A stretch of 26,273 nt of DNA from Clostridia bacterium (GTDB lineage: Bacteria; Bacillota; Clostridia; Christensenellales; Maliibacteriaceae). Below, piece by piece: positions 718-13,290 of this stretch (positions are counted from its first letter, which is position 1; every line of letters starts with the position of its first letter). Where the stretch lies: positions 1 to 26,273 of the forward strand of contig JAGBGW010000019.1 in assembly GCA_017935825.1 (NCBI GenBank). The letters are read 5' to 3'. The notes under the pieces are model-generated. The model ran no database searches and was not told where the DNA came from. It was given only the letters and a program-made list of their open reading frames with translations. The position numbers and the translations under genes are program-made.

Positions 718-3087
718 TTATTCCTCCTGCAATTCCTGCGGGATCTGGACGTTTTGCATCGGCTGCTGTACAAGTGCCTGCACGGGCTGTACGGGGATCT
801 GTGCCGTTACGGAAGGTGCCGACGGGCTCTTGGGCAGATCGGGATACTCGATGCGCTCGTGATAAGTGCTGGACAAAGTCTTGATGAAGGACTCGATCAG
901 AATGCCCAGATCGCGAAGCGTCAGAGGCGAAGCGTCCAGCTGACCGTCCGCAAGTTTGCCCCGAACCAGCTTTTCAACCAGTTCGCGAATTGCCTCGGGG
1001 GTGTGCTCACGAAGCGTGCGGCTTGCTGCCTCAATGGTATCTGCAAGCATGATGACCGCCTCCTCCTTGGTCTCGGGACGAGGACCGGGATAGCGGAACG
1101 ATGCCTCATTGACGGGCGGCAGGCCCTGTTCCTGGGCAAGCTTGCTGGCCTTGCCGTAGAAGAAGGCGGCCAACGTATCGCCATGGTGGGAACGGATCAC
1201 GTTCTGGATGGGTCTTGGAATACGATAGCGCTTTGCAATCGCCACACCGTCGGTGACATGGCTTCGCAGAATCATCGCGGAAAGGTCAGGTGAGATATGA
1301 TCATGGGGATTGCCCGGACCCACCTGATTTTCCTTAAAGAACACGGGGCGCTTCATCTTGCCCACATCGTGGTAGTAGGCAGCGGTTCGTGCAAACAGCC
1401 CGTCCGCACCGATGGCATCGGCAGCCTGCTCTGCCAGATTGGCAACGACGATGCTGTGATGATAGGTGCCCGATGCTTCCATCAAAAGTTTTTTAAGCAA
1501 AGGCTGATTGGGGTTGGAAAGCTCCATCAGCTTCATGGGGGTCAGCAGGCCAAACAGATTTTCCCAGAAGGGCATGACACCCAGGCACAGCATGCCCGAA
1601 AGCACACCCGAGCCGATGCCGTATGCAATGCAGGGCAGGTAATTGCCCGTGGACTGACTGCGCGCCACAAGGAAGTAGATGCCTGCAGTGACCACGCCGC
1701 CCAGCGCACCGGACACGAGCATGGTGCCGCGCTGGATCTGCTTATGTCCGCTTCGAAGAATGAAGACGCTGACGCAGCCGCCGATCGCGGTAGCAAGGGT
1801 GACATTGAGCGTATTGGCATTGACGATCTGTCCACCTTCGCCTGCCATCATACCCACAAGGAAGGATGCGGCGATGGCAACGGCAAGGCCGATGCGCTCA
1901 CGCAATGCCACCGTCACCACAATGCCGCAGGCGGCAACGGGTGCAAGGCGGATATCCGCCAGCTGGCACAGGTAGGATACGATCATCACCACGCAGAACT
2001 GAGCACAGATCATCCAAAGATGCTCTCTGTCCTTCAAAAGCGTGCGGTGGAATTGTACGATATAAATTGCAAGAAGACCGTAAGTCAGCACCACAAAGCC
2101 GATGGTGGAAAGATACAGCGACCAATCCAGCCGATCGCTTCGAAGAAGATTCAGGCTCTTCAAAACTTCGTACTGTGCTTCGGTGATGCGCTTACCCTCT
2201 TCAACGATGATCTCGCCCGATTTGAAGGTGACAGGGGTCACCGACTCAATGGCGCGCTGACGTGCAGCTTCCAAAGCTTCGGTATCAAGCAGAAGGTTTG
2301 CCTTCACATATTGGCGAACCGCGCAAAGTGCAAGGGCGCGAAGGTCGTCATTCAAAGAAGGAAGACTTGCTGTGAAGTCGGCCATGATAGTGTCATAGGC
2401 AGAAGAAAGCAAACTTTCCTTGACACCTGTTTTCATGGTTGCTTCCACGCAGGAAGTAAGGATTCTGCAGTAGACTTCCAGATCCTCATTGGAAAGATCA
2501 AGAATGCAGCGCACCTGCTGCGTGGTGGTACCTGCAGGCAGCATGCGCGCAAGGCTCTGCAGGAAGGAATCCTCATAAACAAATTCTGCCGTGTCCACGG
2601 TAAAATCTGCCGCCGTCACATCGGAATCGGGATTTCGTTCAAGTTCCGCAGCGACCAGCTTGTTCAGTTCCTGCTGGCGCCAGCGCTCCACCTCATCGGC
2701 GGCCGTTTCGCGGACCATGCGACAGGATTCCGCAAAGGCATCCATTCCGCTCATGGTGTCAACCATTGCCTGCTCGTCCTCGGTATAGCGCACGTCAACC
2801 GCTGCCACAGCTTCATCGATCAGCTTCTGTGTGGAAACCGTATCTTCAATTTCACGGGTGGCCTTGATGGTTTCAGGTGCAACATCGTCCATCTGCAGGT
2901 CGTAGCGCTTGGGCTGTACGCTCATCAAGATCAGTACAATGGACACAATGATCGCCACTGCCGCAGGGGTAAGCAGCTTCCAGTCCCATTCCTTATTCTG
3001 ACCCATCAGCGTGCGCCGAATGATCTGCATGCGCAGCTTTAACTGTTTTAAAAACTTGCCAAGCGACTTAGTCTGTTCTTGTTTCAT
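718..3087 (-). CDS. pgpH: 7TM-HD membrane phosphohydrolase (PgpH/YqfF family, probable c-di-AMP phosphodiesterase)
   Basis: Large extracellular domain, multiple TM helices, then an HD domain (GTYHHS, YYHDVGK, SHHG, MLADTIEAA). Conserved position between phoH and ybeY. Start MKQEQ at 3087 overlaps the phoH end. Confidence 0.85.
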   Translation of the reverse strand: MKQEQTKSLGKFLKQLKLRMQIIRRTLMGQNKEWDWKLLTPAAVAIIVSIVLILMSVQPKRYDLQMDDVAPETIKATREIEDTVSTQKLIDEAVAAVDVRYTEDEQAMVDTMSGMDAFAESCRMVRETAADEVERWRQQELNKLVAAELERNPDSDVTAADFTVDTAEFVYEDSFLQSLARMLPAGTTTQQVRCILDLSNEDLEVYCRILTSCVEATMKTGVKESLLSSAYDTIMADFTASLPSLNDDLRALALCAVRQYVKANLLLDTEALEAARQRAIESVTPVTFKSGEIIVEEGKRITEAQYEVLKSLNLLRSDRLDWSLYLSTIGFVVLTYGLLAIYIVQFHRTLLKDREHLWMICAQFCVVMIVSYLCQLADIRLAPVAACGIVVTVALRERIGLAVAIAASFLVGMMAGEGGQIVNANTLNVTLATAIGGCVSVFILRSGHKQIQRGTMLVSGALGGVVTAGIYFLVARSQSTGNYLPCIAYGIGSGVLSGMLCLGVMPFWENLFGLLTPMKLMELSNPNQPLLKKLLMEASGTYHHSIVVANLAEQAADAIGADGLFARTAAYYHDVGKMKRPVFFKENQVGPGNPHDHISPDLSAMILRSHVTDGVAIAKRYRIPRPIQNVIRSHHGDTLAAFFYGKASKLAQEQGLPPVNEASFRYPGPRPETKEEAVIMLADTIEAASRTLREHTPEAIRELVEKLVRGKLADGQLDASPLTLRDLGILIESFIKTLSSTYHERIEYPDLPKSPSAPSVTAQIPVQPVQALVQQPMQNVQIPQELQEE

Positions 3088-5892: not shown

Positions 5893-5921
5893 ATTATAAG
5901 ACTTCTGTCAGTTTGTGTCAA
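5893..5921 (-). promoter_or_regulatory. Sigma-A promoter of rpsU
   Basis: Perfect TTGACA (5921-5916), 17 bp spacer, TATAAT (5898-5893). Confidence 0.9.
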
Positions 5922-5948: not shown

Positions 5949-5981
5949 TTATGCCATCTGTTCGGTCATCTGCTTGCCGCC
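5949..5981 (-). repeat. Second copy of the last 33 bp of the HIT gene (other copy 6110-6142)
   Basis: GGCGGCAAGCAGATGACCGAACAGATGGCATAA versus the gene end GGCGGCAAGCAGATGACTGAACAAATGGCTTAA: 30/33 identical, and both read GGKQMTEQMA*. Confidence 0.95.
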
Positions 5982-6109
5982 TCGTCCTCGCGGACTTCAT
6001 ATCACTCACCGCTTCGCAAGCTCACCGTTTCATTCATTTCGTCGCTCGTCCTCTTCGCAAAATTCCTTACGGCTTTTTGCGAGTTTTTCAAACGGCAAAA
6101 CATCAACGA
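5982..6109 (-). mobile_element. 128-bp structured insertion (MITE/REP-like or integrative-element scar) between the two HIT-end copies
   Basis: Bounded by the 33-bp direct repeat. Internal hairpins TCGCAAAA..CCGTAAGG..TTTTGCGA and GTCC-GCGA-GGAC; no credible CDS. The mobile origin is inferred. Confidence 0.5.
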
Positions 6110-6451
6110 TTAAGCCATTTGTTCAGTCATCTGCTTGCCGCCAAGGACGTGCAGATGCAGGTGCAGAACGCTCTGTGCACCGTCGCGGCCGGTGTTGACG
6201 ATGAGGCGATAGCCGCTTTCTGCGATACCGACTTTTTCAGCCATGATGGCTGCAACGCGCATCATGTGACCCAGCAGAGCCTGGTCTTCATCGGTGGTGG
6301 CAGCAACGGATTCCACATGCTTTTTGGGCAGTACCAGCATGTGCACGGGTGCCTGGGGATTGATGTCGTTGATGACGACTACCTGATCGTCTTCGTAAAT
6401 ATGGGGGGACGGAATTTCGCCCGAGATGATTTTGCAGAAAATGCAGTCCAT
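6110..6451 (-). CDS. hinT: Histidine triad (HIT) nucleotide-binding protein
   Basis: MDCIFCKI start, DINPQAPVHMLVLPKKH, HLHLHVLGG triad. AAGGAG RBS. Confidence 0.95.
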   Translation of the reverse strand: MDCIFCKIISGEIPSPHIYEDDQVVVINDINPQAPVHMLVLPKKHVESVAATTDEDQALLGHMMRVAAIMAEKVGIAESGYRLIVNTGRDGAQSVLHLHLHVLGGKQMTEQMA

Positions 6452-12042: not shown

Positions 12043-12963
12043 ATGAAACGAGCTTTTCGCTTTTTTATATGCGTGCTGCTTGTCTGCACGATGCTTTTTG
12101 CATCAGGCTGCGGCACATTGTCCTTTCCGGACATGGTAGAAAAATTTGATCTTGCACTGACCGGCTGTGATGTCGTCATCCATTTCCGCGACGAAATGTC
12201 CGGCGGTGCTGATGTTTACACCCGCCTGACAGGCGACGAGGCAAACGCCTTTATCACCGCAATTGCCTGCGGCCGCCAGATCAACGCCCCTAAAGAGGAT
12301 TACAGCATTCACCTGAGTGCTTCTCATCAGATTGTTTTGGAATCTGCAGGTTCTGAAAAGATGCAGATCTTCTACGATGAGGCAAACGATTGGCTCATCG
12401 CACAGATCGCGCAGCAAAAGGGTTCCAACACCATTATGCGTTACTACTTCTTCCGACCTGATCCGGTGTTCCATGCGCTGCTGGACATCGCCGCCGAAAA
12501 GCGAGCATCTACGGAGGATACTGATACACTGCAGACATCTTCGCTGGTACTTCGTGCCAGTATTACAAGCGACATGCTCGCTCAGGCCGGCACCGTGGTA
12601 GACTACGAGCTTTATACCGGCAGCTATGCCTATGCCGACGAAGCTTCGCTGTACCACATCTATACCAGCCAGGAACTGCCCGAGGTCGTGGAAGGTTCCA
12701 CCGGTCTTCTTGTTGCATCCCTTGGTGCCTGCCCCACCACAGGCTACTCGGTCAACATTTCCCAGATTGACTACACCGACCACCTGATCCGTGTGTTCCT
12801 GCATGTGGAATCCCCCATCTATCCCGATGATGAGGAAGTGGTGCAGACCTACCCCTACGTTATGGCAACCTGCGATCTGGACGATTTCCCGCTGGGACTT
12901 ACCGTGGCATTCATCGACCAGAACTACAACATTTTGGACGTGCAGACCATCCAGATGCCCTAA
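12043..12963 (+). CDS. Lipoprotein with a C-terminal PrcB-like (protease complex subunit) domain
   Basis: Signal peptide with lipobox (LFASG-C). C-terminal LGACPTTGYSVNISQI...VQTYPYV resembles PrcB_C; the N-terminal domain is not recognised. Confidence 0.7.
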   Translation: MKRAFRFFICVLLVCTMLFASGCGTLSFPDMVEKFDLALTGCDVVIHFRDEMSGGADVYTRLTGDEANAFITAIACGRQINAPKEDYSIHLSASHQIVLESAGSEKMQIFYDEANDWLIAQIAQQKGSNTIMRYYFFRPDPVFHALLDIAAEKRASTEDTDTLQTSSLVLRASITSDMLAQAGTVVDYELYTGSYAYADEASLYHIYTSQELPEVVEGSTGLLVASLGACPTTGYSVNISQIDYTDHLIRVFLHVESPIYPDDEEVVQTYPYVMATCDLDDFPLGLTVAFIDQNYNILDVQTIQMP

Positions 12964-12969
12964 AAACAT

Positions 12970-12998
12970 TCGACAAAATGGAATATCCATTTTGTCGA
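12970..12998. terminator. 13-bp perfect hairpin just after the lipoprotein stop
   Basis: TCGACAAAATGGA-ATA-TCCATTTTGTCGA. The only nearby U run is on the minus-strand side (AUGUUUUU). Confidence 0.65.
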
Positions 12999-13002
12999 GA
13001 CC

Positions 13003-13140
13003 TGCAGATTTTCCCTGTCGCCTTACGGCTCCCGGGCGCAAAACTCTGCAATGTAGGAAAACACAGTTTTCCTGCGCAAACGGCGTACATGCCGCCGTTT
13101 ACGGTATGAGATCAAGGGTTGCACCCTTGATGATCCTGCC
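13003..13140 (-). repeat. Tandem hairpin cluster (REP/MITE-like element or structured RNA)
   Basis: Four adjacent stems: 13003-13050, 13055-13073, 13078-13100 and 13111-13131. Confidence 0.55.
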
Positions 13141-13290
13141 AAATTACTTTAAATCCAATTCGGATAAGAAGTATTGGCTTAAGCTTGTTTTTCATTTTCC
13201 TTTTACGCAGGAAGCGTAGGAAGATCGAAAATAGATTTACCGTTTTTATCCACTGAAACCAAAAATCATTCGGAAAGGACGTACATCATC

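Follow-up and report, generated by a model that had tools for sequence, protein, structure and literature searches.

The end of a HIT-family gene occurs twice in the window (the whole stretch of 26,273 nt analysed here, from a contig of a Clostridia bacterium), and 128 nt of additional DNA lie between the two copies, ahead of the rpsU promoter. How this arrangement arose, and whether the inserted DNA folds into a switching structure with the gene ends around it, is the question raised by the locus.

On the minus strand, an mtaB-like gene (7768-6476) precedes the HIT-family gene (6451-6110), which ends with GGKQMTEQMA and the stop codon TAA at 6112-6110. The last 33 nt of the gene form the proximal, translated copy of the HIT end (6110–6142). 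They are followed by the insert (6109-5982) and by the distal, untranslated copy (5949–5981). The insert starts with a spacer of 27 nt between the HIT stop codon and a structured module (6083–6109), and the sharp 3' end of the module, ..GACGA (5982–5983), is joined straight to the distal copy. A perfect sigma-70 promoter of rpsU, TTGACA-17-TATAAT (5893–5921), is located 27 nt past the distal copy, and rpsU itself occupies positions 5812-5639. The HIT-end copies at 6142-6110 and 5981-5949 differ in three nucleotides, all of them synonymous. In a genome of the same genus (G001) the rpsU -35 box is found 10 nt after the HIT end, without any insert; hence the insert and the duplication of the HIT end are derived. 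The insert was not present at the HIT–rpsU locus in either of the same-genus genomes sampled (G001 and G003). The distal copy carries ACC/CAG, as in the empty site of G001, and these two synonymous sites, common with a 72%-identical relative, weakly suggest that it could be the ancestral one.

A preliminary description of this DNA, made by hand pairing, proposed that the insert forms a multi-arm structure closed by an arm within the spacer. The arm UGUUUUGCCGUU (6102-6091, minus strand) can indeed pair with GGCGGCAAGCA by 11 pairs, including three G.U pairs, with one bulged U, and this target is found twice, at 5981-5971 and at 6142-6132, once in each HIT-end copy. The bases are also as described in the local hairpin UCGCAAAA-(CC GUAA GG)-UUUUGCGA at 6082-6055, in the GGUGA/GGUGA loop with the GCUUGCGAAGC apex (6026-6006), and in GUCC-GCGA-GGAC (5995-5984). 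The predicted stability of the whole structure does not exceed chance. The RNA fold of 5971-6142 on the minus strand has an energy of -47.8 kcal/mol (z -1.36), and 19 of 200 shuffled sequences are equally stable; the corresponding z values are -0.83 for the plus strand and -1.72 for the 172-nt stretch folded with DNA parameters. The 128-nt insert folded alone does stand out (z -2.86; 1/200 shuffles as good). The unconstrained minimum-energy RNA fold of 6142-5949 (-50.5 kcal/mol) uses neither arm pairing, and forcing them yields -45.5 kcal/mol for the distal and -46.0 kcal/mol for the proximal target, about 5 kcal/mol above the minimum. The duplex between the spacer and the 33-nt HIT copy is matched by 14.8% of dinucleotide shuffles (6.8% for the first 12 nt), and an ungapped test for an inverted match of the arm to the HIT site gives p of about 0.06. 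The insert has no match in Rfam at E<=10.

The inserted structure itself is not unique. A module of approximately 105 nt is present in three copies in this genome, one of them being window 6082-5982 on the minus strand, in the 3' 100 nt of the insert. The other two copies (C265:1469-1570 in locus L002 and C34:3108-3187 in L003) are 85-92% identical over the core. All three terminate in ..GTCCGCGAGGACG(A), and their upstream hairpin, designated P1, differs compensatorily: CTCGCAAAA/TTTTGCGAG, CTCCCAAAA/TTTTGGGAG and CACAAAAAGT/ACTTTTTGTG, so that the P1 stems of L002 and L003 are changed in both strands. The closing arm lies outside the module, and the alignments of the other two copies begin at P1 or later (query position 26 or 48). 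The distal stem of the module, P2, is degenerate in all three copies, which accounts for the GGUGA/GGUGA loop (6026-6022 / 6010-6006) and the GCUU-GCG-AAGC apex (6021-6011) in the window.

Several arrays of other small hairpins were noticed in the same genome. In L002 (G000:C265) tandem mini-hairpins TTGCTTCGCAA and GCACTTCGTGC, spaced by GTGATAT, occupy positions 1570-1690 and 2960-3030 and trail two paralogous genes of zinc-ribbon membrane proteins, a single unit behind one of them and three behind the second. An array of hairpins spaced by AATTCA lies upstream of the C34 module copy in L003. The window has an intergenic cluster of back-to-back small hairpins at 12962-13145, one of which, AGCCGUAAGG, has the same GUAA loop as P1 of the insert; the cluster has no match to the covariance model and may be another mosaic from the same repertoire of hairpin units.

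The occurrence of the module in other genomes was analysed by an exact-pattern scan with GGACGAGCGACG-N40-60-GTCCGCGAGGAC and by a covariance model, R1, built from 12 copies. The pattern scan identified 27 loci in genomes of representative species, as well as 4 contigs from viruses and 67 from metagenomes, the counts including a few chance matches in coding sequences, e.g. L033 and L037. The hosts include Pseudoflavonifractor (at least 10 copies in one isolate), Lawsonibacter, Butyricicoccus, Agathobaculum and Blautia. Of 151 genomes sampled from the order, 34 were positive in the covariance-model search, the richest having 23 copies of the module. Window 5981-6082 on the minus strand matches the full model with 60 bits (E of about 1e-11), typical copies scoring 120 bits. 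A BLAST-level search of 40 relatives missed the family, which was detected by the covariance model alone, and a metagenome scan with a pattern specific to the subfamily of this genome gave nothing useful. At loose thresholds Rfam 15 contains no family for typical copies (five loci; L044 at E<=10), conserved 12-mers of the module gave no match in a full-text literature search, and a typical copy has nothing similar among 72,556 plasmid records. The module is thus a previously uncatalogued two-hairpin repeat, widespread in gut Clostridia (Oscillospirales and Lachnospiraceae), and the 128-nt insert is a spacer plus one worn, lineage-specific and partly degenerate copy of it.

Module copies also form tandem arrays, for example 7 x 151 nt. 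The latter, in L083 978-2049 (G105:C6), has seven 151-nt units that are 98% identical, each composed of a diverged module and a 36-nt spacer. Arrays of three units were observed in L084 (period 213) and in L064/L089, beside tRNA-Leu.

The fold of the family was derived from 105 model-aligned matches, 92 of them distinct; the alignment was fitted to the model and the counts lean its way, with large margins. Module positions are paired in 94% of cells compared to 66% in shuffled alignments and 35-48% in slid controls. Double changes were observed at 34 of 34 module pairs, and the covariation score is 0.72 vs 0.22, a value reached in 0 of 500 shuffles. The first hairpin, P1 (6055–6082 in the window, by covariance-model placement), has 10 bp, all of which covary across the family, and its apex is often GCCCAGCGAAGCGGGU. 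A 3-nt linker (AGA) joins P1 to one long hairpin, G.A-rich, which family covariation places at 5984–6051 (GGA-C-GA-GCGAC ... GUCCGC-GA-G-GAC). The consensus of its 5' side is GGA-C-GA-GCGAC-GGA-AU-GA-AU-GA, leading to P2 of about 10 bp, and the 3' side after P2 reads GA-AU-GAU-AU-GNA-GU(C)CGC-GA-G-GAC. P2 covaries in the family, and in some subfamilies the tandem G.A steps are swapped for Watson-Crick pairs. P3, formed by GUCCGC with the upstream GCGAC (6045-6041 with 5995-5990 in the window), is 97% paired and shows double changes, with GC and AU pairs exchanged in 36 copies. All module copies end with ..GACG(NN).

The multi-arm fold of the preliminary description therefore survives in part: the family has both P1 and the purine-rich arm with its tandem G.A pairs, but neither the closing arm nor the third arm. 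The candidate third arm GUCC-GCGA-GGAC is paired in 73.0% of cells vs 73.1% after shuffling (350 of 500 shuffles reach it), with covariation below that of the shuffles. In place of the three-arm junction, GUCCGC partners the upstream GCGAC and not the downstream GGAC.

The placement of the structure on the minus strand was confirmed. G.U or G.T pairs occur in 30/92 and 40/92 copies at two positions, and since these pairs and the conserved tandem G.A steps can be formed by one strand only, the minus strand of the window is the structured one. A GNA triloop closed by C-G is found in P1 of 51 of the 92 copies. Mini-hairpins of the d(GCGNAGC) type are established DNA structures, and the P1 triloops hint, by this analogy, at single-stranded DNA rather than RNA as the folded form. 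Hammerhead, twister and K-turn readings of the conserved core were considered by eye and rejected, as the core motifs do not match.

The layout of the HIT locus, a gene end, a short spacer, the module and a second gene end, recurs at tpiA and pgk in other genomes. The last 78 nt of tpiA are duplicated in G151 (L041), G159, G161 and G164, the latter with three copies. A duplication of 46 nt of the tpiA end was found in G157, and the second module of G161 joins at the same position. The end of pgk is duplicated over 30 nt in G164 and G157 and over 39 nt in G151. Two non-genic copies of the module, L021 and L112, are bracketed by flanking repeats of 24 nt. In every case the joint with the distal repeat is the 3' end of the module, and the length of the duplication varies from 24 to 78 nt or more. 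We know of no bacterial transposase of such a size class that explains variable duplications of this length. A MITE of the DDE type was rejected: the module ends are not mutual inverted repeats, and flanking repeats are mostly missing or else 24-78 nt long.

The differences between gene-end copies are nearly all synonymous, which speaks against simple drift after duplication, although the translated tpiA copy of G159 has diverged in its protein sequence. The tpiA insertion is common to G151 and G159, with 90% identity over the whole locus, and both copies within each genome carry genome-specific variants; because these variants are common to both copies, the comparison indicates gene conversion between gene-end copies as the probable cause. 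In G164 the interval between the second and third tpiA ends (L160 1930-2085) is occupied not by this module but by another element, which strings together five small hairpins and ends with ..GGGACG, so gene-end duplication is not exclusive to the R1 module. Flanking repeats and inverted flank copies are both missing in about 95% of module copies; the gene-end signature is therefore not established as a general product of insertion.

The idea that the arm is a guide recognizing the insertion target finds a parallel in independent gene-end insertions of the module. At the 78-nt site of tpiA the spacers contain an inverted copy of the intact insertion site of 15-19 nt (p<=4e-4 in three genomes), which in G161 is identical at 19 of 19 nt. 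At the 30-nt site of pgk the inverted copy has 12 nt (p<2e-4 in two genomes). At both sites these copies are located 6-11 nt 5' of P1. No inverted site copy was seen at the 39-nt site of pgk, the inverted match at the 46-nt site of tpiA is not significant, and inverted flank copies are not enriched over 116 module copies. The guide idea thus has a counterpart at individual tpiA and pgk sites but not in a general excess, and the expectation that the arm would covary with the flanks in other copies failed in the same set of 116.

The window arm is found 8 nt 5' of P1. It spans only the downstream half of the insertion site, with three C-to-T mismatches and one extra base. Moreover, the 27-nt spacer resembles the sequence beyond the distal HIT copy (p = 0.03). 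Similarly, the spacer of G161 is homologous to native downstream sequence, and in an empty-site relative (L165) a similar sequence follows the tpiA stop codon. From this likeness in the window, G161 and L165, the duplication may extend past the stop codon and the complementarity may be partly native; on the same sequence comparison, the tpiA inverted repeat may predate the insertion. The closing arm is most likely a decayed remnant of the insertion signature or of native downstream sequence, and not a conserved arm of the fold. As to its origin, it is probably a decayed footprint of insertion, or possibly an insertion guide.

In 8 of 157 copies the module lies flush, within 1 nt, with the 3' end of an opposite-strand tRNA gene (Leu, Arg, Val, Pro or Met), the chance expectation being about 0.01. 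In L078 and L081 the junction between the module and the tRNA end was displaced by later integrations. In one rumen lineage the module interrupts 5S rRNA genes. In Pseudoflavonifractor it is embedded in mosaic repeats of more than 500 nt. The orientation with respect to neighbouring genes is about even (upstream gene on the same strand in 31 cases and on the opposite strand in 39, by crude ORF calls).

Individual loci of this kind have further features. The 5S rRNA copies (L024 5229-5328 and 666-765, L042, L095 and L118) are antisense and lie between ..CCACCC and CCCGAAC..; one locus resembles a full 5S gene with an insert, and another a pseudogene. L075 1503-2110 contains two tandem non-coding elements (262 and about 325 nt) at tRNA-Pro, each of which starts with the reverse complement of the module and has conserved ..GGCGCAGACTG..AAATT at the other end; they are bounded by tRNA-end repeats of 16, 16 and 9 nt. 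In one phage lineage (L032 2387-4131) two modules lie in antisense orientation immediately ahead of a gene for a phage-type reverse transcriptase (phrog_1423, RVT_1), which is possibly part of a diversity-generating retroelement. The same arrangement was found in L047, L048, L098, L113, L119, L136, L148 and L155. A retron or diversity-generating retroelement as the origin of the module itself was rejected: differences between gene-end copies are not adenine-specific, and the sole module-linked reverse transcriptase is phage-type, encoded on the opposite strand and confined to this single phage lineage.

In the typical subfamily, at least 11 loci have the module upstream of mobC and a MobA/VirD2 relaxase gene, divergently oriented and in a fixed position, and in two or three loci it is directly upstream of mobC-relaxase on the same strand. 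The putative oriT of MOBP7 mobilizable elements lies upstream of mobC, and oriT-like sequences are also present in elements without a relaxase (PMC12084326). Module-positive and relaxase-positive genomes overlap above chance (15 genomes, odds ratio about 3.6, uncorrected for kinship). No more than two or three ancestral associations may underlie the relaxase-linked copies. The PF03432 relaxase was not found in the high-copy genomes G073 (23 copies), G074, G078 and G124, nor in the present genome, which is 83% complete, and the module copy of the window is far from any mobilization gene. The Y1 transposase (PF01797) was not found in G073 (23 copies) or G099 (20 copies), and six loci around Y1 genes are without the module.

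Taken together, these data make it likely that the insert is a copy of a repeat family with an insertion footprint around it, and that the arm is not a conserved structural element. The module would have entered the gene between ..CCTTG and GCGGCAAG.., 33 nt before the HIT stop codon, and the stretch from the entry point through the stop codon, probably about 23 nt further, would have been duplicated. The upstream HIT copy would thereby keep the gene intact, with the 3' end of the module abutting the downstream copy, and the closing arm would take the position in which other gene-end insertions hold an inverted copy of the insertion site. We speculate that the module acts as single-stranded DNA, that its 3' end is attached to a nicked target by an enzyme acting in trans, perhaps one of the relaxase-like HUH type, and that the two gene-end copies are kept alike by gene conversion and selection. 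This enzymatic mechanism, taken alone, is tentative. A broader proposal, to be held with similar reserve, is that the module could be the cis-acting core of an undescribed single-strand mobile element of gut Clostridia, related to or derived from conjugative transfer origins. The trans enzyme would then join the 3' end to a nick at GC-rich sites of gene and tRNA ends, insertion would restore the interrupted gene end as a long duplication, and a short inverted copy of the target 5' of P1 would be written or used, the window arm representing that guide or footprint.

The duplicated gene end could alternatively be left by an integrase that placed here an element carrying the HIT 3' end as attP, of which attL, the 128 nt and attR remain; the element might have been of the cis-mobilizable kind, with an oriT-like module riding on conjugative elements. 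Gene-end integration classically leaves direct repeats of gene 3' ends that differ by synonymous changes, the tandem elements at tRNA-Pro in L075 (262 and about 325 nt) are bounded by tRNA-end repeats (16, 16 and 9 nt), integrase-bearing elements adjoin module-flanked tRNA ends (L081), and the module takes the oriT position of mobC-relaxase modules. However, a single recombinase would have to take unrelated core sequences and two insertion points per gene (78 and 46 nt from the end of tpiA, 30 and 39 nt from that of pgk), and repeats flank the non-genic copies L021 and L112 as well. The joint is always the exact 3' end of the module, which is not expected from random deletion of a larger element, and no integrase (PF00589) is encoded on the contig of the window. 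We consider such a remnant unlikely. A homing element in which the inverted copy in the spacer serves as a programmable guide pairing with the target, the element bringing a replacement gene end, is less probable still. It would explain why the inverted copies span the intact cut site at the 78-nt position of tpiA (19/19 in G161) and at the 30-nt position of pgk (12 nt), why they lie 6-11 nt 5' of P1 in the same place as the window arm, and why the same sites are occupied in several species. On the other hand, the 116 copies have no excess of inverted flank copies, the 39-nt pgk site has none and the match at the 46-nt tpiA site is not significant, and the window arm covers only the downstream half of its site at a marginal p of about 0.06. 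The homology of the G161 spacer to native downstream sequence and the empty site of L165 imply that the tpiA inverted repeat may be older than the insertion, and occupation of the same sites across species can reflect vertical inheritance, the whole locus being 90% identical between G151 and G159.

Far less probable than either is the functional RNA switch of the preliminary description, in which the arm would have two alternative partners, the translated HIT end and the distal copy, and ribosome occupancy would refold the RNA ahead of the rpsU promoter. In its favour, one pairing excludes the other, their energies are nearly the same (-46.0 and -45.5 kcal/mol), and the insert, which separates HIT from the rpsU promoter, is on the sense strand. 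Yet each pairing lies about 5 kcal/mol above the minimum-energy fold, the fold of 5971-6142 is not above shuffles, and the rpsU promoter comes only after the whole structure, which leaves an upstream RNA fold no obvious target. The other copies lack the arm, the alternative pairing shows no conservation, and native sequence past the distal copy has a likeness to the arm (p = 0.03). Rfam gave no match, crude ORF calls put the modules in either orientation to their neighbouring genes about equally often, and the insert is missing in G001 and G003 of the same genus. A ribosome-sensing switch is supported by none of the results. The features seen in the sequence are real; most of the multi-arm switching fold is not.

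Read as a member of a repeat family, the insert can be compared with several known systems. Similarly to REP/BIME/REPIN, BOX, RUP, Correia and bcr1 repeats, the module is short, non-coding, multi-copy and extragenic, and it shares with bacterial interspersed repeats compensatory hairpins, mosaic clustering with other hairpin units and tandem arrays. It differs from REP-type repeats by its size of about 105 nt, two defined hairpins and a long conserved G.A-rich core, as well as by the sharp 3' end abutting tRNA 3' ends and by long variable gene-end duplications; unlike REP/REPIN with RAYT, it has no link to a Y1 (RAYT/IS200) gene. Typical module copies resemble the oriT of MobC/MOBP-type modules (Tn1549-family mobilizable and conjugative elements) in their fixed place upstream of mobC-relaxase and in strand-specific hairpins followed by a precise end, at which a nick site would be putative. 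In contrast to an oriT, many module copies are chromosomal in genomes without detectable PF03432, the window copy is far from mobilization genes, and nothing similar was found among the 72,556 plasmid records. Elements of gene 3' ends and CIMEs also have a duplicated gene end, an upstream copy that completes the gene and tandem accretion at tRNA ends; here the insert is just 128 nt, the insertion points vary within a gene, the joint is always the module 3' end and there is no integrase nearby. Elements of the IS200/IS605 type and their miniature derivatives share with the module strand-specific subterminal hairpins, the absence of terminal inverted repeats and a short target-complementary sequence 5' of the hairpin foot. 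They produce no target duplication and depend on the Y1 transposase, whereas the duplications associated with the module reach at least 78 nt, and two genomes holding 20 or more copies each have no Y1 genes.

For the interpretation of such loci, hand-paired alternative helices near a duplication arise automatically from the duplication itself, and comparative support is needed before a switch is called. If the proposed reading is true, odd "recoded" gene-end duplicates in metagenome-assembled genomes would be explained, and annotators would have a model for masking them. Gut Clostridia would then harbour an abundant uncatalogued structured repeat that enters the ends of essential genes (HIT, tpiA and pgk) without being lethal, lies flush with tRNA 3' ends and breaks up 5S rRNA genes. 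The core of this module would be common to the presumed transfer origin of common mobilizable elements, which would link the conjugation machinery to the genome-wide spread of a repeat.
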